Of a stretch of 64,000 nt of DNA, positions 8,085 through 16,238 are shown piece by piece. The stretch is from NCBI GenBank assembly GCA_963842085.1, contig CAWJET010000002.1, positions 448,001 to 512,000 of the forward strand, given 5' to 3'. A program made the position numbers and the translations under genes. Position 1 is the stretch's first letter. Each line of letters opens with the position of its first letter. Source of the DNA: an uncultured delta proteobacterium (GTDB taxonomy: Bacteria; Desulfobacterota; Binatia; Binatales; Binataceae). The notes below the pieces were generated by a model, which was not told the DNA's origin, did not search any database, and was given only the letters and a program-made list of their open reading frames with translations.

Positions 8085-10202
8085 ATGGCAGTGGAGGAAA
8101 TCGGACGGCTTAGAACTATCGCAATCGTGGGCCAGGGCGGGACCGGCAAGACCCAGGCCGCGGACGCGATGCTCTTTACGGCGGGTGCGGCGCCACGACT
8201 GGGGCGGCCCGACGACGGCTCGGCGGCGATGGACTTCGAGCCGGAAGAAACCAGGCATCACATTTCGATTAGTTCCTCGTTCAATCATCTCAACTGGAAA
8301 AAGACCGAAGTAATTTTCGCCGACACCCCCGGCTACACCGCCTTCCTGCCCGAGACGATCACCACGCTGCGTGCGGTCGACGGCGTCGTCATGCTGATAA
8401 GTCCGGGCGCAGACACCAAGATCGAATCCGAAAAAATCTGGGCCGCGACCGCCGATCTCAAACTGCCGCGAATCGCCTTCGTGTCGCGGCTCGATCGCGA
8501 GCGCACCAGCTTCGACGCCGCGATGAAGGACCTCGAAAAGGTGCTCGGCGCGCGCGCGGTCGCGCTGACGATCCCGATTGGCGAGGAGCTGGGCTTCAAG
8601 GGCGTCGTCGATGTGCTCGCGATGAAGGCGCTCACTTACGCCGACACCAGCGGCAAATCCAGGGAAGAGGAATTATCGGCTGAGCTGAAGACACGCGCGG
8701 AAGCGGCGCGCACGGCGCTGTTCGAAGCGGTCGCCGAGACCGACGACACGCTGCTCGAAAAATATCTCGACCAGGGCACTCTCGACGACGCCGAAGTTCG
8801 CACCGCCCTGCACGCGGCCGTCGTCGAGCGCAAAATCACGCCCGTCTTCTGCGGCTCGGGCGCGAAAAATATCGGCATCGGGCCGCTGCTCGACGCCGTG
8901 ACGACCTTTTTGCCGGCGCCCAACGAACGCCCGCCGGTCGAATGCCAGAATCCCGCCACCGGCGAGCCCGTAAGCCGTCCGGCAGATCCGACTGCGCCGT
9001 TCGCCGCGCTGGTCTTCAAGACGATAATCGATCCGTTCGCCGGCAAGCTCTCGATCTTCCGCATCGTTTCGGGCCGCGCGCAAAGCGATGCGGGCGTGCT
9101 CAACTCGACCAGGGAATCGAAGGAACGCTTCGGCCAGTTGCTGCGGCTCGAAGGCAAGAAGCAAGCGCCGATTGCCGGCGCAATCGCCGGCGAAATCGTC
9201 GCCGTCGCCAAGCTCAAGGACACCACCACCGGCGACACGCTATGCGACGAGAAAGCGCCGGTGCTCGTGATGCCGCCGCTCACGCGTCCGGCCGGTGTGA
9301 TGTCGTTCGCAATTCGTCCCAAGAGCAAGGGCGATGAGGAGAAGGCGTCGTCCGCGCTGCAAAAGCTGATCGAGGAGGACCTCGCGCTCGAGATGCATCG
9401 CGATCCGCAGACCCACGACATCATTTTGTCCGGCACCGGCCAGATGCATATCGAAATCACGGTCGAGAAGCTGCGCCGCAAATTCAACGTCGACGTCGAG
9501 CTTCAGGCGCCCAAGGTCCCTTACAAGGAAACCATCAAGGGACGCGCCGAAGCGCAGGGCAAGTACAAGCGCCAGTCCGGCGGTCGCGGGCAATACGGCG
9601 ATTGCTGGCTCAAGATCGAGCCGATGCCGCGCGGCAAGGGCTTCGAGTTCGTCGACAATATCGTCGGCGGCGTGATCCCGCGCAACTTCATACCGTCGGT
9701 CGAAAAAGGCGTGCGCAACACGCTGGTCGAAGGATTCCTGGCCGGCTATCCGATGGTCGACGTCAGGGTCACCGTATTCGACGGCAGCTATCACGACGTC
9801 GACTCGTCGGATATGGCGTTTCAAATCGCGGCCTCGATGGGCTTCAAGGCGGCGCTAGAAAAAGCCAGACCGATCATCCTCGAACCGATCGTCGCGCTCG
9901 AAGTTGCGTGTCCCGATGAATGCATGGGCGACGTGATCGGCGACCTCAACTCGCGCCGCGGCAAAGTGCTCGGGATGGACAGCAAGGGCAACGGCCAGGT
10001 GATCAAGGCGCAGGTGCCGATGGCAGAGGTGCTGAAGTATGCGCCCGACCTGCGCTCAATTACGTCGGGCCGCGGTTCCTTCGAGCAACACTTTTCGCAC
10101 TATGAAGAGGCGCCGGCTCCAGTCGCTGAAAAGATCATCAAGGAGACGCTCGCCGCGCGCGAGGCCGCCGGCGCCAAATCGCACGCCCACGCCCACGCCT
10201 AG
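8085..10202 (+). CDS. fusA: elongation factor G paralog (EF-G2-like)
   Basis: Five-domain EF-G with YKETI, QSGGRGQYG, GSYHDVDSSDMAF and LRSITSGRG. G motifs are degenerate and the gene is not in the str operon. Confidence 0.9.
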   Translation: MAVEEIGRLRTIAIVGQGGTGKTQAADAMLFTAGAAPRLGRPDDGSAAMDFEPEETRHHISISSSFNHLNWKKTEVIFADTPGYTAFLPETITTLRAVDGVVMLISPGADTKIESEKIWAATADLKLPRIAFVSRLDRERTSFDAAMKDLEKVLGARAVALTIPIGEELGFKGVVDVLAMKALTYADTSGKSREEELSAELKTRAEAARTALFEAVAETDDTLLEKYLDQGTLDDAEVRTALHAAVVERKITPVFCGSGAKNIGIGPLLDAVTTFLPAPNERPPVECQNPATGEPVSRPADPTAPFAALVFKTIIDPFAGKLSIFRIVSGRAQSDAGVLNSTRESKERFGQLLRLEGKKQAPIAGAIAGEIVAVAKLKDTTTGDTLCDEKAPVLVMPPLTRPAGVMSFAIRPKSKGDEEKASSALQKLIEEDLALEMHRDPQTHDIILSGTGQMHIEITVEKLRRKFNVDVELQAPKVPYKETIKGRAEAQGKYKRQSGGRGQYGDCWLKIEPMPRGKGFEFVDNIVGGVIPRNFIPSVEKGVRNTLVEGFLAGYPMVDVRVTVFDGSYHDVDSSDMAFQIAASMGFKAALEKARPIILEPIVALEVACPDECMGDVIGDLNSRRGKVLGMDSKGNGQVIKAQVPMAEVLKYAPDLRSITSGRGSFEQHFSHYEEAPAPVAEKIIKETLAAREAAGAKSHAHAHA

Positions 10203-10218
10203 AGCGCGGGGCAGGGCA

Positions 10219-10246
10219 GGGCGGCCTTGTATTGCAAGGGCCGCCC
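10219..10246 (+). terminator. GC-rich hairpin after the EF-G paralog
   Basis: GGGCGGCCTTG-tattg-CAAG(G)GCCGCCC with a weak T-tail. TACAAT at 10253-10258 may be the -10 box for the next operon. Confidence 0.4.
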
Positions 10247-10279
10247 GTCTTGTACAATCGGTGCGGTGGCAGCTAGCCG

Positions 10280-10492
10280 ATGGCGCCGATAGGAAAGAGC
10301 CTGGTCTTCGCCGGTATCGCGATTGCGGTCGTGGGACTGGCGCTGTGGGGATTGTCGTCGGTGCCGTACGTCGGCAGGCTGCCGGGCGACATCTACGTCC
10401 GCCGCGGCAACTTCACCTTCTATTTTCCGCTCGCGACCTGCATTCTTGTAAGCATCATTGCGACTATACTGTTCTCGCTGACGAGGCATTGA
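10280..10492 (+). CDS. DUF2905 family small membrane protein
   Basis: Two TM helices around the signature GRLPGDI...NFTFYFPLATC. Confidence 0.85.
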   Translation: MAPIGKSLVFAGIAIAVVGLALWGLSSVPYVGRLPGDIYVRRGNFTFYFPLATCILVSIIATILFSLTRH

Positions 10493-10496
10493 CGAA

Positions 10497-12725
10497 TTGG
10501 CAACGGAAAAATCCGCAAGCCTGCATCGGCTCGCAGAGCGCAAGCGGCGCCGCCGCGAGCTGATCGCCGTCGGTGTGGCCGGCGCGACTCTGGTCGCATT
10601 CGTGCTCGCCCAGACCGAGTTGCCGCCGCTCACGCGTCACACCTCGCTGGCTTCGAACCTGGCGGTCATCTCGCTCTTCAACCTGAGCTTTTTGCTGCTC
10701 GGCTTGATGCTGTTCCTGGTCGGACGCAACCTGGCCAAGGTCATCTTCGAGCGCCGCCGCGGATTGATCGGCTCCAAATTCCAGGTCCGGCTGGTGGCGG
10801 GATTCATCGCGGTCGCCCTGATCCCGAGCGCGTTCCTGCTGTACGTGTCGGGCGTGTTTCTGCACGCCGACATCAATAGCTGGTTCAATCCCGAGTACCA
10901 GCAGATTCTCGATGACTCGCTCGAGATCGCGAGGACCTATTATCTGAATTCGGCCAACAACGCGTCGCATTTCGCGCGCGTGCTGGCAGAGGAGATCTCG
11001 GCGCGCGGCCTGCTCGCGCCGCAAAAGCGCGACGATCTCAAGGCGTTCATCAATCAGCGCCAGGAGGAATACAACCTCGGCACCATCGAGGTGTTCTCCG
11101 CCGATCGCAAGCTGCTGCTGATCGACCTCAGTCCCAAGACGCCCACCGGCATCGGCGCGTCGCCCGATTCGCCGATCATCTCGCAAACGCTGAAGGGACA
11201 GGCCCTCACGCGCACCGACCGCCTCGGCAACGCCGACGTAATCCGCGGCTCCGCGCCGATTTACGTCTCGAGCGAGACCGACAACGTGCTCGGCGCCGTG
11301 CTGGTCGACTACTATCTCCCGCAGAGCCTGGCGACGCGCGCGACCAACATTTCGCGCGTATCCGAGGACTACTTCCAACTCCGAATCCTGCGCCAGCCCA
11401 TCATGAACAGTTACCTGCTGACGCTGGTGCTGATCGGGCTGGTGGTGGTGACGCTGGCGAGCTGGTTCGGCATATTTCTTTCGCGCGGAATCACCGGCCC
11501 GATCAAGCTGCTCGCGCGCGGCACGCAGGCGATCGCGGGCGGCGACCTCCATTACCGCATCCCCGCCGTGGGCGACGACGAGCTCGGCCAGCTGGTCGAT
11601 TCCTTCAACCAGATGACCGCCGATCTGCGCGCTTCCGCCGCTGAGCTCGAGCGCCGGCGCCATTACACCGAGACCCTGCTGCGCAATGTGTCGGCGGGCG
11701 TCGTCGGGCTGGACCACGACGGCGTCGTCACCACCATCAATCCGTGCGCCGAGCGGCTGCTCGATCTGAGCGCCGCCGCCGTCATCGGCCGCAACTACCA
11801 GGGCGCGTTCCCGCCCGCGCTGGCCCGCGTGCTCGACGACATATTCGCTTTCGCCACGCGCCCGCGCGAAGCCCGCTCGACCGTCAAGCTCGAAGTCGCG
11901 AGCGGCGAGACCGAGCTGATGATGACCGCGAGCCCGCTGGGCGACACTCCCGGCGAACCCGCCGGAACCGTGCTGTTCTTCGAGGACGTCAGCCAGATTG
12001 CGAAGGTCGAGCGGATGGAGGCGTGGCGCGAAGTTGCGCGCCGCATCGCGCACGAGATCAAGAATCCGCTGACCCCGATTCAGCTTTCGGCCGAACGGCT
12101 CCGGCGCCAGCTCGGCGCGCGCCCGGGTATCGAGTCCACGCTGGTCGAGGAATGCACGCGCACGATTATCGGCGAAGTCGAGGACCTCAAGCGGCTGGTG
12201 AATGAGTTTTCGGCGTTCGCGCGGATGCCGCATCTGAATCCGGTTCCGGGCGACATCAACGCGCTCGCCGGCGAGACCGTCGCGAATTTCCGCGAGGCGA
12301 ATCCCAGGGTCGAGTTTGCGCTCGCGCTCGACCCCGCGATCCCGCTGATTCCGATCGATCGCGACGCGCTGAAACGCGCGCTGGTCAACCTGCTCGACAA
12401 CGCGGTCGCCGCCGTGACCGCCATCAATCATAACGGCGCCGGCCCCAGGATCGAGGTGCGTAGCTATCGGCGCCCCGACAACTCGCTCGTAACCCTCGAA
12501 GTCGCGGACAACGGCCCGGGCATCGATCCGCGCCTGCGCACCCGCATCTTCGAGCCGTACTATTCGGGCAAAAAGGGCGGTACCGGACTCGGCCTCGCGA
12601 TCGTCTCCGCGGTCGTAACCGACCATCACGGCTTCGTCCGCGTAACCGACAACCCGCCGCGCGGAAGTAGATTTGTGCTAGAATTTCCTATAAAACACCT
12701 ACAATTCGCAAAGGCAACCGGCTGA
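10497..12725 (+). CDS. ntrY: NtrY-like sensor histidine kinase (TM-periplasmic-HAMP-PAS-HisKA-HATPase)
   Basis: Three N-terminal TMs, 'INSWF', a periplasmic domain, HAMP (DELGQLVDSFNQM), PAS, the NtrY H-box AWREVARRIAHEIKNPLTPIQLSAERL, and N/G1/F/G2 boxes. Confidence 0.9.
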   Translation: MATEKSASLHRLAERKRRRRELIAVGVAGATLVAFVLAQTELPPLTRHTSLASNLAVISLFNLSFLLLGLMLFLVGRNLAKVIFERRRGLIGSKFQVRLVAGFIAVALIPSAFLLYVSGVFLHADINSWFNPEYQQILDDSLEIARTYYLNSANNASHFARVLAEEISARGLLAPQKRDDLKAFINQRQEEYNLGTIEVFSADRKLLLIDLSPKTPTGIGASPDSPIISQTLKGQALTRTDRLGNADVIRGSAPIYVSSETDNVLGAVLVDYYLPQSLATRATNISRVSEDYFQLRILRQPIMNSYLLTLVLIGLVVVTLASWFGIFLSRGITGPIKLLARGTQAIAGGDLHYRIPAVGDDELGQLVDSFNQMTADLRASAAELERRRHYTETLLRNVSAGVVGLDHDGVVTTINPCAERLLDLSAAAVIGRNYQGAFPPALARVLDDIFAFATRPREARSTVKLEVASGETELMMTASPLGDTPGEPAGTVLFFEDVSQIAKVERMEAWREVARRIAHEIKNPLTPIQLSAERLRRQLGARPGIESTLVEECTRTIIGEVEDLKRLVNEFSAFARMPHLNPVPGDINALAGETVANFREANPRVEFALALDPAIPLIPIDRDALKRALVNLLDNAVAAVTAINHNGAGPRIEVRSYRRPDNSLVTLEVADNGPGIDPRLRTRIFEPYYSGKKGGTGLGLAIVSAVVTDHHGFVRVTDNPPRGSRFVLEFPIKHLQFAKATG

Positions 12726-12776
12726 TGCGATTCTTGCCGCGCCGCGACGAAGCGCGCTCCCCGGAGAAAATTTGAC

Positions 12777-14054
12777 GTGAACGAGACCGTGCTGGTGGTG
12801 GATGACGAGGAGCGGATTCGGTCGTCTTTGCGTGGAATCTTGAGCGATGAAGGCTTTCGCGTCGTCGAGACCGGCGACGCCCCGGGCGTGATGGACCTGA
12901 TTGCGCGCGAGAGTCCCGCCCTCGTTCTGCTCGACGTCTGGATGCCCGAAATGGACGGCATCGAGTTGCTGCGGCGAATCAAGTTCGAGCAGCCCCAGGT
13001 CCCGGTCATCATGATTTCCGGCCACGCCAATATCCAGAGCGCGGTCGCTGCCACCAAGCTCGGCGCCGCCGATTTCATTCAGAAGCCGTTCTCGGTCAGC
13101 GGATTGCTCGCGTCGATCGCGCGGGCGCTCGAGGGCGACTCCGCCGGTCCTGATCCATCCAGCGCGCGCGGCATGAGCGCCGAGGTCCGCGCTGCCGGCC
13201 GCAAGGCAATCCGCGCCGGCGCGATTCCGCAGCGCACCGTCGCGCGCTCGATCGTGACCGGCGGGCAGGGGCTTCACACCGGCCTCAAGACCGGCGTCAT
13301 CCTCCATCCCGCGCCCGCAGGATTTGGAATCGTGTTCACCTCGCTCGCCGACGAGACTTCCATTCCGGTCCGCTTCGAGAACGTCACCGACACCGGCTAC
13401 AACACCACCCTCGCCAGCGGCGGCCGCTCGGTCCGCACCGTCGAGCACCTGCTGTCTGCGCTCCACGCCTTCGGCATCACCAACCTCCTCGTCAAGACCG
13501 ACGACGAAGTACCCGCGCTCGACGGTTCGGCGCTTGAGTTTTGCAAACAGATTGCCGAAGCCGGGCTCACCACGCAGGACGCAACCGTCGAACCGATCAA
13601 ACTTACCCACCAGCTCGTGATCGGCGATGAAGGCGAGGGCCGCGAGTTTATCAAGGCCGAGCCCGCCGACCACCTGATCATTGATTACACGCTCGACTAC
13701 CCCAAACCGATCGGCATCCAGCAACTGCACTTCGAGCTGACTTCGCCCGACGCCTACACCCGCGAAATTGCGCCGGCGCGCACCTTTGGCTTCGTTTGGG
13801 AGTTTCGCAAGCTCGCCGAGCTCGGCCTCGGCAGCGGCGCGCGCATCGACAACGCCATCTTGGTCGACGACGACAAGGTCGTGAACACCACGCTGCGCTT
13901 CCCCGACGAATTCGCGCGCCACAAGGTCCTCGATCTGATCGGCGACCTCTACCTGCTCGGCCGTCCGCTGCATGCGCACATCACCGCGTCGAAGACCGGC
14001 CACTCCGACAACCTGGCCCTGGTCAAGGCAATCCACGCGTCGCTCCAAAGCTGA
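12777..14054 (+). CDS. lpxC: receiver domain fused to UDP-3-O-acyl-GlcNAc deacetylase (REC-LpxC)
   Basis: aa 1-120 are an NtrX-type REC (VVDDE, LLDVWMP, ISGH, QKPF). From aa ~152 the sequence is LpxC (QRT, GLHTG, TVEHLLSAL, EVPALDGSA, ARTFGF, RHKVLDLIGDL, GHSDN). Confidence 0.92.
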   Translation: MNETVLVVDDEERIRSSLRGILSDEGFRVVETGDAPGVMDLIARESPALVLLDVWMPEMDGIELLRRIKFEQPQVPVIMISGHANIQSAVAATKLGAADFIQKPFSVSGLLASIARALEGDSAGPDPSSARGMSAEVRAAGRKAIRAGAIPQRTVARSIVTGGQGLHTGLKTGVILHPAPAGFGIVFTSLADETSIPVRFENVTDTGYNTTLASGGRSVRTVEHLLSALHAFGITNLLVKTDDEVPALDGSALEFCKQIAEAGLTTQDATVEPIKLTHQLVIGDEGEGREFIKAEPADHLIIDYTLDYPKPIGIQQLHFELTSPDAYTREIAPARTFGFVWEFRKLAELGLGSGARIDNAILVDDDKVVNTTLRFPDEFARHKVLDLIGDLYLLGRPLHAHITASKTGHSDNLALVKAIHASLQS

Positions 14055-14077
14055 ACGGTTTGTCTTTCTCGCTTGTT

Positions 14078-14112
14078 CCCCTTCCCACATGCGAAGGGGT
14101 TAGGGGTTAGGT
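14078..14112. repeat. palindromic intergenic repeat (CCCCTTC...GAAGGGG-TTAGGGGTTAGG type)
   Basis: 7-bp stem followed by a G-rich tail. Related to the element at 29825-29915. Confidence 0.55.
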
Positions 14113-14160
14113 TAATCGAGGCGCGCGCAGTTCCCTCAGTCCTGACGGCTTAAACTCGAC

Positions 14161-14892
14161 ATGGATCTCAGAGGAAAAGTCGCGTTGGTAACCGGCGCAA
14201 GCCGCCGCGTCGGACGCGCCATCGCGCTGAAATTCGCCGGCCACGGCGCCACGGTCGCAGTTCACTATCATGGCTCGCACGCCGAGGCGGACGCAGTCGT
14301 CGCCGAGATCGCGCGCAAGCGTGGCAAGGCTCGGGCATTTTGCGCCAACCTTGAGCGCGTCGGTGAGATTGAGGCGATGGTCGCCGGCGTGCTCGACGCG
14401 TTCGGCCGAATCGACATCCTCGTCAATTCCGCTTCGGTCTTCGCGCGCACGCCGCTCGCCGAACTCACCGAGCGCGACTGGGACGCGAACCTCGATACCA
14501 ACCTGAAGGCGCCGTTTTTTCTGTCGAAGTTCGCGGGCGCAGCGATGCGCCGGCAGGGCGCGGGCAAAATCGTCAACCTCGGCGATTGGGCCGGGCTGCG
14601 TCCGTACAAGGACTACCTGCCGTACTCAGTGTCCAAGAGCGGCCTGATAGGCTTGACCAAGGCGCTCGCCAAAGAACTGGCGCCCGAAGTGCAGGTCAAC
14701 TGCATAGCGCTGGGCATGGTGATGCCGCCCGAAAGCTATACCAGGGAAGAAGTGGAGCGCCTCGTCAATCGCACGCTAACCAAAAAAATGGGCTCCGCCG
14801 AAGACGTCGCCCGCGCCGTGATCTTCTTCTGCGAAACAGACTTCGCCACCGGCGCAACCCTCGAACTGGAAGGCGGTCGCCTGCTCGTTTAG
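14161..14892 (+). CDS. SDR family oxidoreductase (pteridine reductase/FolM-like)
   Basis: TGASRRVG, VHY, LVNSAS, YSVSK catalytic YxxxK. Confidence 0.88.
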   Translation: MDLRGKVALVTGASRRVGRAIALKFAGHGATVAVHYHGSHAEADAVVAEIARKRGKARAFCANLERVGEIEAMVAGVLDAFGRIDILVNSASVFARTPLAELTERDWDANLDTNLKAPFFLSKFAGAAMRRQGAGKIVNLGDWAGLRPYKDYLPYSVSKSGLIGLTKALAKELAPEVQVNCIALGMVMPPESYTREEVERLVNRTLTKKMGSAEDVARAVIFFCETDFATGATLELEGGRLLV

Positions 14893-15932
14893 CTCTTCTC
14901 CGTCGGCGCCTTCTTGAACTCGATCTTCGCGCTCTTCGCAATTTTCTTGAGCAGCGCCTTTACGACCGTGTCTTCGTTCTCGTCGAGCAAAAACATCGCA
15001 ATCTTCGCCTTCACTTCCGACAGGGGCGAGATCGTCTCGCCGCGCCGCGAAAGCACCTTGATAAAGCTGAAGCCGAGATTCGACTCGACGATTTGCGTCA
15101 GCTGCCCGACCGGCGTCGCGAACACCAGCTTGTCCACCACCGGCGGCAACTGCCCGGGCCGAAAGTAACCGAGGTTGCCCCCCTTCGCCGCCGATTCCGC
15201 GTCCTCGGAGTTCTGCTTGGCGAGCGCCGCGAAGTCCTTGCTCTTGAGCGCCTCCTTGTACAGCTTGATGATTTTTTCGCTCGCCGCCTTCTTCTGCGCG
15301 TCGGTCGGGTTGGGCGGGAGCTTCACCGCGATGTGCGCGATTTCCGCCTCGCCGGGATCCTTGACGAACAGGTCGCGATGCTCGTCGTAGTATTGCTGGA
15401 TCTGCGCGTCGGTGGGCTGCACGTGATGCGCCCGGAATTCGTCGTCGAGCATTTTCTCGATCACCATCGACCCGCGCACCGCGTTCATCAGTTGCGCATC
15501 CGGAGCGCCGGTCGTCGCGACGGTCTGGCCGCCCGCGCCGGCAATCTGGAACTCGCGCGCACGCTGCGCCACTTCGGGGTCGGAGACCGTGATCTTGCGC
15601 TTCTCGGCCTCCTGCAGCAGCAATTGCCGGTTGATTAGATTTTCGCTCGCGTCGCGAAACACCGCCCTCGATTCTTCGGTGCTGGTCGCGTTGATCATCC
15701 GCGCTTCGGTCTTCGCATAGTCGGTTATCTCCGCCGCGGTGATCGGAGCGCCGTTGACCGTCACCACCACCGGATCTTTCGGATTGGGTTTGACCAGCGG
15801 GAGGATTCCGAGGAAGCGTTGTTGCCAGTCGAGTCCCGCCTCACCAAGTTGCGCGCAGACTGGATACGCGGTTGCAACCGCGACAGCAATCGCGACAATC
15901 AAACCGGCGAGCGGCGTTCGGCTAATGCGCAT
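14889..15932 (-). CDS. SurA/PrsA-like parvulin peptidylprolyl isomerase
   Basis: Signal peptide from MRISRT (start moved to 15932), a SurA N-domain, AHIAV, FAALAKQNSED, GGNLGYF. Confidence 0.88.
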   Translation of the reverse strand: MRISRTPLAGLIVAIAVAVATAYPVCAQLGEAGLDWQQRFLGILPLVKPNPKDPVVVTVNGAPITAAEITDYAKTEARMINATSTEESRAVFRDASENLINRQLLLQEAEKRKITVSDPEVAQRAREFQIAGAGGQTVATTGAPDAQLMNAVRGSMVIEKMLDDEFRAHHVQPTDAQIQQYYDEHRDLFVKDPGEAEIAHIAVKLPPNPTDAQKKAASEKIIKLYKEALKSKDFAALAKQNSEDAESAAKGGNLGYFRPGQLPPVVDKLVFATPVGQLTQIVESNLGFSFIKVLSRRGETISPLSEVKAKIAMFLLDENEDTVVKALLKKIAKSAKIEFKKAPTEKS

Positions 15933-16052
15933 CAATTCAAAACCCCCAATCGGTCTGCGTGCGGCGCCCCGCACGATGAACCCACGGCGTATACTCGGAT
16001 GCGATTCGGCGTCAAGGGGGTCGCCTCGATGCGGGCGGCTGGGAGATTTGCG

Positions 16053-16238
16053 ATGGCGCAACTGCGCACCGTGAGCATGGTCTTCGCGATAGTCGCGAGC
16101 GTAGTCGCGATTGTCGCCGGCTTCATCCTGTTTTTTGTGATCGAGCAGCCGTTCCTGGCGTCGATTTTTCTCGCCTCCGCGCTAATCGCTATCGGATGCT
16201 TCGTGCTCACGGGCATCGCCGCCTACTTCGGTCCCTGA
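16053..16238 (+). CDS. small two-TM membrane protein (61 aa)
   Basis: MAQLRTVSMVFAIVA... is the hydrophobic 3' part of ORF 15819-16238, with GGGAG upstream. Confidence 0.55.
   Translation: MAQLRTVSMVFAIVASVVAIVAGFILFFVIEQPFLASIFLASALIAIGCFVLTGIAAYFGP

Follow-up and report, generated by a model that had tools for sequence, protein, structure and literature searches.

A response-regulator receiver joined to LpxC in the Binataceae and its multi-phylum family of NtrX-like relatives

We analyzed a window of 64,000 nt from a member of the Binataceae (GCA_963842085.1, CAWJET010000002.1, positions 448,001–512,000), a soil bacterium. In it, three open reading frames (ORFs) of 70, 742 and 425 aa lie head to tail on the forward strand and encode a small DUF2905 membrane protein, an NtrY-like sensor histidine kinase, and a protein in which a response-regulator receiver (REC) is joined to LpxC, the enzyme that gates lipid A synthesis and has long been a target for antibiotics. 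Judged by its domains and its relatives, this REC-LpxC protein stands at the reduced end of a family in which NtrX-like regulators are fused to LpxC. It is an enzyme-output response regulator, of an architecture seemingly without earlier description, and the fused layout, which recurs in several phyla, suggests a possible direct signal control of outer-membrane synthesis.

The 425-aa protein matches Response_reg over residues 5–114 (Pfam PF00072, 108.3 bits, E 3e-31) and LpxC over residues 152–420 (PF03331, 281 bits against a cut-off of 27, E 1.3e-83). The LpxC match covers positions 1–267 of the 268-position profile, the domain being complete from the QRT motif usual at its N-terminus, and the lpxC equivalog model of NCBIfam (TIGR00325) scores 242.1 bits against its cut-off of 187.25. 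No AAA+ or helix-turn-helix (HTH) family is among the protein's Pfam matches, which leaves LpxC as the regulator's only output. Among NCBIfam models the receiver matches NtrX best (NF051870, 125.6 bits over residues 4–121); without AAA+ and HTH, the score stays far under the 600 bits that this model requires of a whole protein. The protein thus looks to descend from an NtrX-like regulator but is not itself NtrX, since only its receiver matches; nor, lacking an AAA+ domain, is it a sigma54-dependent activator with GAFTGA and Walker B Asp-Glu motifs. The receiver keeps the acidic pocket (D9/D10), the phospho-acceptor (D53), the switch residue (S81) and the lysine (K103), and so belongs to the REC family by model and by phospho-site residues. 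Seven LpxC positions (E223, H224, H382, K383, D386, D390 and H409) are invariant in 47/47 aligned REC-LpxC proteins; we take them to correspond to Escherichia coli E78, H79, H238, K239, D242, D246 and H265, of which H79, H238 and D242 are presumably the zinc ligands and E78 and H265 catalytic. The first-pass annotation, made from the DNA letters alone, had placed the three ORFs at the coordinates that we recovered, and its description of an intact NtrX-like receiver joined to a complete LpxC, zinc and catalytic residues included, with no AAA+ or DNA-binding domain, agrees with these results.

An AlphaFold2 model built from a 47-row alignment has a pLDDT of 88.5 and a pTM of 0.85, with only residues 123–146 below pLDDT 50; a whole-chain pTM this high despite a disordered linker hints at a defined arrangement of the two domains. 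The linker, of about 25 aa, is predicted to be disordered, and among relatives it varies in length and sequence, the alignment being gapped there and without conservation. In a Foldseek search the best match of the C-terminal domain was the short LpxC of Aquifex aeolicus (1yh8_A; target TM-score 0.95, root-mean-square deviation 1.6, 275 columns), and no solved chain spanned both domains (query TM-score about 0.60). The protein stops a few residues past the catalytic domain. Docking of the receiver (1–122) against LpxC (148–425) as separate chains gave ipSAE values of 0.00 and 0.01; controls were not run, and we use these values neither way.

The fusion is not a product of assembly. The first-pass annotation had warned that a single-base indel at the linker could join a separate receiver gene and lpxC, the sole grounds for this being an out-of-frame TGA and an in-frame ATG in the linker. 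In 31/31 genomes of the class, however, which represent 10 families and 13 genera and include the source genome (G000), the full-length fusion is one continuous, stop-free match (30/30 without the unpublished G018); the matches run from residue 1–5 to 419–425, with the exception of G014, which matches from residue 35. The best 120 of 7,823 database matches share 73–93% identity with the protein, all have both Pfam domains, and their source names are Candidatus Binatus or Binataceae. We also compared contigs from four public soil-metagenome runs of two studies, which may include the source sample. Positions 13130–13230 are bridged without mismatch or gap in 3/4 runs (X1, 13082–13289; X2, 13064–13391; X5, 13027–13237), and the listed contig pieces of the fourth, X4, leave 13112–13178 uncovered. 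Among the contig differences listed for the four runs there is no insertion or deletion within 12777–14054, and the only substitution listed in the fusion gene is a C to A at 13007 in X2, at a third codon position. With a continuous frame that recurs in hundreds of independent assemblies and public-run contigs free of indels in the ORF, we rule out the artefact, to which we assign a vanishingly small probability. The only indel listed is one missing base at 14092, in the intergenic sequence just past the stop codon, a variant present in all four runs at depths of 3.5 to 18.3 out of totals of 8.1 to 41.9; it is strain variation or a homopolymer issue and lies outside the gene.

The fusion gene is also the organism's only lpxC, as the first-pass annotation had asked to be checked. 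The 4.93 Mb genome, in 2 contigs and 100% complete, contains exactly one LpxC match, the REC-LpxC gene, together with two LpxA matches above cut-off and one LpxB match. Being the sole LpxC of a complete genome with LpxA and LpxB lends indirect support to the protein's predicted deacetylase activity. The accompanying check for a full ntrX elsewhere in this genome found none above the NCBIfam cut-off (best score 417.7 bits); ten NtrC-type regulators are present. The fused gene is likewise the only LpxC in 5/5 fused genomes tested from other lineages. A search of the source genome for the LapB zinc-ribbon gave no match, with a 28-position model that is unspecific and matches 10/14 control genomes, Gram-positives among them.

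The kinase encoded directly upstream has an N-terminal membrane and extracytoplasmic part followed by HAMP (residues 327–378), PAS (392–498), HisKA (510–577) and HATPase_c (621–733) domains. NtrY_N matches weakly (27.9 bits against a cut-off of 23.2, profile positions 49–165 of 291), and it is through this match and the four clear cytoplasmic domains that we place the protein with the NtrY-type kinases; no NtrY equivalog is among the 25 NCBIfam matches listed. By tblastn, 12/12 loci outside the genus and 12/12 within it, or 24/24 in the class, have the kinase immediately upstream in the same orientation, and in the 12 outside the genus it shares 38–46% identity with the window kinase over almost the whole length. 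Domains and class-wide adjacency support the proposed pairing of a kinase with a response regulator. Outside the class, the kinase is directly upstream in 12/33 fused loci. In two Nitrospinota genomes, an NtrY-like kinase (418 bits at L114 in G330 and 394 bits at L115 in G031, tblastn) is on another contig than the REC-AAA+-LpxC gene, which looks like an unlinked kinase–regulator pair.

The first-pass annotation had further proposed a test for conserved linkage to both the kinase and DUF2905, with the latter as a possible accessory partner. Within the class, linkage held for the kinase but not for DUF2905. Scanning with a hidden Markov model built from the window copy and its relatives, we found DUF2905 upstream of the kinase in 5/12 loci from other families of the class and in 10/55 related loci overall, and in some relatives DUF4390 takes its place. 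These counts rule out DUF2905 as a core accessory; it is a variable, lineage-specific one.

Searching 1.84 billion representative proteins, we found among the best matches many longer proteins as well as REC-LpxC proteins. The longest architecture is exemplified by P0123 (736 aa), in which Pfam recognizes Response_reg, Sigma54_activat, AAA_lid_14, HTH_8 and LpxC; P0125, P0127 and P0130 are long forms without HTH, and P0138 (491 aa) has Response_reg, HTH_8 and LpxC. A census of 180 proteins (150 listed matches and 30 cluster members) comprises 22 REC-AAA-HTH-LpxC proteins, 9 REC-AAA-LpxC proteins plus 1 with a split AAA match, 7 REC-HTH-LpxC proteins, 47 REC-LpxC proteins plus 2 with split matches (many of them fragments), 10 forms without an N-terminus, 74 with LpxC alone and 8 of other architectures. 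Source names are Nitrospina and Nitrospinota for the long forms, Candidatus Entotheonellia for the 491-aa form and Spirochaetota bacterium for the short form P0153. Public annotation calls the fused proteins plain LpxC, and one source labels P0123 ‘NtrX’. Relatives that carry REC-AAA+-HTH-LpxC behind the same kinase uphold the first-pass view that the fusion gene sits in the position of ntrX.

The architecture search that the first-pass annotation proposed showed that the fusion is not a one-off but belongs to a large multi-phylum family. Scanning species-representative genomes with two LpxC motifs as patterns, we found fused loci, among the matches listed, under the labels Nitrospina, Nitrospinota, Nitrospinaceae, Thermodesulfobacteriota, Desulfomonile, Syntrophobacter, Syntrophobacteraceae, Desulfocapsaceae, Thermodesulfovibrionia, Thermoanaerobaculia, Holophagae, Terriglobia and Binatia; the records of the family carry five phylum labels (Nitrospinota, Thermodesulfobacteriota, Acidobacteriota, Nitrospirota and Binatota). 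One of these loci, L034, comes from an uncultured Nitrospina and shares 81% identity with the query P0126; cultured Nitrospina species probably carry the long form. A long-form fusion in a bin labelled Thermodesulfobacteriota (L042:3458–5661) has its receiver and LpxC in separate reading frames and its AAA+ match broken into two parts, through either misassembly or decay of the gene. From the window's own phylum, a very broad one, we further sampled 301 genomes at E <= 1e-30. Among the matches listed, 38 genomes match the query over both domains and 38 more over the LpxC part only (E 2.9e-71 to 2.1e-94), in open frames of 450–837 aa; from open-frame length alone, we take the latter to be fused as well, with a diverged or longer N-terminus. 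The remaining listed matches are in open frames of about 290–430 aa with E near 1e-50, and 14 of the 301 genomes have no LpxC match at the threshold. Since 38 two-domain and 38 long-frame matches add up to roughly 76/301 sampled genomes, fused LpxC appears to be common in the phylum. A fusion confined to Binatia is ruled out by the representative-protein, species-genome and phylum-sample searches. Seven genomes of genus code g80 (G112, G177, G208, G238, G267, G295 and G322), 99–100% complete, gave no LpxC-part match at E <= 1e-30 and may have a very divergent LpxC or no lipid A synthesis.

Both halves of the fused proteins are conserved beyond the class. D9, D10, D53 and K103 are present in 46/46 fused loci under the five phylum labels, with S or T at position 81 in 45/46, and the phospho-site is also kept in fused loci without an adjacent kinase. 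A set of 47 diverse REC-LpxC proteins shows no variation at D10, S81 or K103 and at least 90% conservation at D9 and D53. This pattern indicates that the phospho-site of the receiver is under selection. On the enzyme side, twelve LpxC positions between residues 160 and 407 (nt 13254–13997) are near-fixed in the fused clade and rare in unfused proteins: V160, T172, G173, H230, L238, K240, C256, Y308, P309, L362, Y392 and T407. At the position of K240, 39/46 unfused proteins have Glu or Asp. These signature residues may mark a docking or contact surface for the receiver.

To place the fused enzymes among other LpxC proteins, we built an unrooted phylogeny of 92 LpxC domains from named loci (quick IQ-TREE, LG+G4). 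A branch with SH-aLRT support of 100 separates 46 fused-locus sequences, among them the long fused form L039 and L042, the long form with its parts in different frames, from 46 unfused ones; unfused LpxC with Acidobacteriota, Thermodesulfobacteriota and Nitrospirota labels groups with the latter. The same split, with support of 94, is recovered in a second, independent tree built from 113 representative proteins. Four short ‘unfused’ sequences lie inside its fused side, and we considered whether they represent a reversal to the unfused state: P0164 and P0187, on contigs of 902 and 925 nt, are contig-edge fragments, and P0176 and P0222, on long contigs, remain unexplained. Both trees are consistent with a single origin of the fusion, which unrooted trees do not prove. 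Phylum labels are mixed within them, pointing to transfer between phyla or to mislabelled bins. Full and reduced forms are repeatedly close sisters: full P0135 pairs with the REC-HTH-LpxC protein P0138 (support 100), full P0132 with the REC-LpxC protein P0144 (support 89), and full P0123 falls with the REC-LpxC protein P0141 in a set supported at 100. Loss of AAA+ and HTH must therefore have happened more than once.

The unfused state is seen in eleven loci (L064, L065, L067–L071, L074–L076 and L086) in which lpxC, a kinase and a separate REC-AAA+-HTH regulator lie on one strand. DUF4390 lies between lpxC and the kinase, confirmed by Pfam in 4/4 loci tested, with similar ORFs in 8 of the eleven, and three fused loci (L038, L039 and L046) also have it ahead of the kinase; in the source genome DUF4390 gave no match, but the controls were equally without one, so this is no demonstration of absence. 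When the kinase of L064 is used as the query in the source genome, it singles out the window kinase (614.9 bits, 45% identity, residues 4–730; next-best match 99.5 bits), and the sensing half of the fused and unfused systems is on this ground the same. The regulators differ in their transcriptional machinery. GAFTGA or GSFTGA is present in 9/10 regulators adjoining unfused lpxC and in 0/15 fused long forms, and the Walker B Asp-Glu in 10/10 against 0/15; in the nine fused long forms with a recognizable Walker B, the residue after the Asp is Gly, Asp, Arg or Ser. Walker A is retained in 10/10 unfused regulators and 13/15 fused long forms, and Pfam Sigma54_activat scores 237–246 bits in the former and 24–128 bits in the latter.

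Known systems offer partial parallels. Response regulators with enzymatic outputs include CheB, which joins a receiver to a methylesterase, as well as PleD, WspR and RpfG. The receiver of CheB, when unphosphorylated, obstructs the active site, and phosphorylation lifts this obstruction. REC-LpxC resembles CheB in its order of parts, with a receiver at the N-terminus joined through a flexible linker to an enzyme at the C-terminus, but its output is a housekeeping envelope enzyme, and the cell's only LpxC, whereas CheB-type outputs are signalling enzymes. The AAA+ domain of NtrX is not known to contain GAFTGA, which those of the long fused relatives lack, and the window kinase shares the domain order and an NtrY_N match with NtrY of the alphaproteobacteria Rhodobacter sphaeroides and Caulobacter. 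NtrX, however, acts on the transcription of many genes, and the window protein has neither AAA+ nor HTH. The NtrYX system, like the one described here, is linked to lpxC and lipopolysaccharide (LPS): deletion of ntrYX in R. sphaeroides raised lpxC mRNA 8.8-fold and increased LPS, with no NtrX site at lpxC (PMC7240162). In Desulfovibrio vulgaris Hildenborough, Rajeev et al. (2011) describe the regulator DVU2934 in an operon with the kinase DVU2931 and give lpxC as its single DAP-chip target (PMC3333781; see also PMC4114195 and a bioRxiv preprint). They note orthologues of DVU2934 in Geobacter and Acidobacterium, and in Syntrophobacter fumaroxidans the orthologous operon has lpxC immediately ahead of it (PMC3333781). 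DVU2931/DVU2934 is thus a two-component system dedicated to lpxC, and the S. fumaroxidans order, by that paper's description, matches our unfused loci L064–L076; it differs from the fused system in exerting transcriptional control through separate proteins. By analogy, the DVU2934–lpxC and NtrYX–lpxC reports are an independent functional link between such systems and lpxC.

Post-translational control at LpxC, the gate of lipid A synthesis, is itself familiar. A 2025 review of lipid A regulation describes proteolysis by LapB/FtsH/YejM in E. coli and activation by MurA in Pseudomonas aeruginosa (PMC12444477). Those systems work through separate partners and, in E. coli, a C-terminal degron, whereas REC-LpxC ends just past its catalytic domain. 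In its accessible text the review treats NtrYX only as a transcriptional, non-specific input and calls LpxC regulation outside Enterobacteria an open question, and a term search of it returned no ‘fusion’, ‘fused’ or ‘response regulator’ (PMC12444477). LpxC is joined to another domain in the bifunctional LpxC-FabZ fusion as well; there the partner is a C-terminal pathway enzyme, whereas in REC-LpxC it is an N-terminal signalling domain, and the window protein, at 203.4 bits against a cut-off of 465 for the LpxC-FabZ model (NF009667), is not a member. We found no description of a receiver–LpxC or NtrX–LpxC fusion in the literature searched, whose coverage excludes most subscription journals.

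Domain layout, residue conservation, kinase linkage, the presence of one LpxC copy and the series of domain losses are all observed; reading from sequence, we favour as probable that phosphorylation of the receiver directly tunes LpxC. The NtrY-like kinase would sense a membrane or periplasmic cue and set the phosphorylation state of Asp53, and the receiver would in turn set the amount of LpxC activity in the cell. The most likely route would be for the receiver to dock reversibly on, and be released from, the tethered catalytic domain, as the CheB receiver does with its esterase; receiver dimerization or altered stability could serve instead. After the fusion the phospho-switch and the enzyme were kept while the transcriptional machinery decayed, a pattern most simply explained if the attached enzyme had become the output of the receiver. 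Historically, an NtrC/NtrX-type regulator may have controlled lpxC transcription, lpxC would then have become the neighbour of that two-component system, a single fusion would have joined regulator and LpxC, and the sigma54-contact, ATPase and DNA-binding parts would have decayed and been lost repeatedly to leave REC-LpxC. That one ancient fusion made a dedicated lpxC transcriptional regulator part of the enzyme, with the redundant modules shed repeatedly thereafter, is a tentative account for which the chances seem to us a little short of even.

Several observations weigh against direct control by phosphorylation. No kinase lies within the flank examined in 17/33 fused loci outside the class, and in Nitrospinota a full-length kinase homologue (420–432 bits) sits away from the fused gene, with no regulator seen within 1.4 kb downstream of it. 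The acceptor Asp is replaced in P0141 (454 aa, Asn) and P0152 (695 aa, Ser), which may be phosphorylation-independent offshoots. A long, variable linker excludes rigid coupling through the linker. A Terriglobia-labelled genome, G332, has a fused LpxC plus an unfused lpxC–kinase–regulator locus, which shows that a fused copy need not be a genome's sole LpxC. Orthology of the fused regulators with alphaproteobacterial NtrX or with DVU2934 is putative, and phosphotransfer, the effect of phosphorylation on the enzyme and the sign of that effect are, in every member, what we infer. As to G332 itself, its fused REC-LpxC gene has no adjacent kinase and its separate locus encodes lpxC, a kinase and a REC-AAA+ regulator (L073 and L117); one kinase might there serve a transcriptional and an enzymatic regulator together.

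The loci without an adjacent kinase and the rare members without an acceptor Asp would suit a receiver that works independently of phosphorylation, as a dimerization module, a means of membrane or partner localization or a protease handle, with the kinase not switching LpxC at all; the control of LpxC known elsewhere, through protein partners and proteolysis, fits this as well (PMC12444477). The near-universal phospho-site described above is hard to explain without phosphorylation, however, kinase linkage is strict within the class, and full-length kinase homologues are found elsewhere in 4/5 genomes whose fused gene has no adjacent kinase, so that we regard such a module as unlikely. Signalling might instead run in reverse, LpxC sensing its substrate or product load and modulating phosphorylation or dephosphorylation of the receiver, so that the protein would be a flux-reporting phosphate sink for the kinase and other regulators; in the long forms the LpxC domain would then control the protein's own DNA binding. 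HTH_8 long forms, 22/180 in the census, could couple enzyme occupancy to DNA binding in this way, and in G332 the fused copy and the unfused locus could share a kinase. Yet a DNA-binding part is absent from the window protein and from most of the family, and the operon holds no second cognate regulator. REC-LpxC must moreover be a working enzyme, because its catalytic residues are invariant and it is the genome's only LpxC. We consider this direction of signalling improbable. A neutral ‘Rosetta stone’ fusion, in which co-expression is all that links two mechanistically independent proteins, is easy to imagine as accidental read-through, because lpxC and the two-component system are neighbours in the eleven unfused loci. 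Against it stand the persistence of the fusion as a single clade over five phylum labels, the repeated loss of the other output domains with REC and LpxC kept, and the signature residues, such as Lys240, that suggest adaptation to a partner domain; we rate it as quite improbable.

Table 1. Coordinates, strand and supporting evidence for the receiver–LpxC operon, parts of the fusion protein and neighbouring features of the window.
Feature	Coordinates (nt)	Strand	Evidence
EF-G-type GTPase, 705 aa	8085–10202	+	all five EF-G domains
DUF2905 small membrane protein, 70 aa	10280–10492	+	Pfam PF11146, 83.6 bits
NtrY-like sensor histidine kinase, 742 aa, TTG start	10497–12725	+	Pfam
REC-LpxC fusion, 425 aa, GTG start	12777–14054	+	Pfam, NCBIfam
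Receiver (REC), residues 5–114	12789–13118	+	Pfam Response_reg
Phospho-acceptor Asp53 codon	12933–12935	+	within receiver
Inter-domain linker, residues 123–146	13143–13214	+	AlphaFold2 pLDDT <50
LpxC deacetylase domain, residues 152–420	13230–14036	+	Pfam LpxC profile
SDR gene	14161–14892	+	
SurA-like periplasmic chaperone/peptidyl-prolyl isomerase	14889–16061	-	SurA_N + Rotamase
ORF, 511 aa	19702–21240	-	no Pfam match at E <= 1e-4

The three genes are closely spaced, with 4 nt between the end of DUF2905 and the kinase start and 51 nt between the kinase and the fusion gene, whose GTG start is preceded by GGAGA (Table 1). A promoter and terminator scan of 9900–14400 was uninformative: it gave 0 promoter-like sites, and its 3 terminator-like sites compare with an expectation of 3.6 in shuffled sequence. 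Upstream, the EF-G-type gene stops 78 nt before DUF2905. Downstream, the SDR gene lies between the fusion gene and the SurA-like gene, which is convergent with the operon; the SDR gene adjoins the fusion in 12/12 loci of the genus and the SurA-like gene is there in 11/12, whereas the 12 loci of the class's other families showed neither. The 511-aa ORF overlaps long ORFs of the forward strand and may not be a real gene.

A receiver on a cell's only LpxC offers a testable mechanism with a defined input (the kinase), switch (Asp53) and output (deacetylase activity), and experiments may not need to depend on the uncultured Binatia, because cultured Nitrospina probably carry the long form. The family forms a natural series that starts with a sigma54 activator beside the gene it targets, continues with the full fusion and ends with the stripped REC-enzyme, and this series traces a route by which a regulatory circuit may pass from transcription to direct protein control. 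It would also provide a physical link for the scattered observations that connect NtrYX with the envelope and DVU2934 with lpxC. If phosphorylation of the receiver does tune the enzyme, these proteins would add a third way of controlling LpxC to the known ones of proteolysis and partner binding, and would be a seldom documented case of one target passing from transcriptional to post-translational regulation, with a bearing on how LpxC is regulated outside Enterobacteria.

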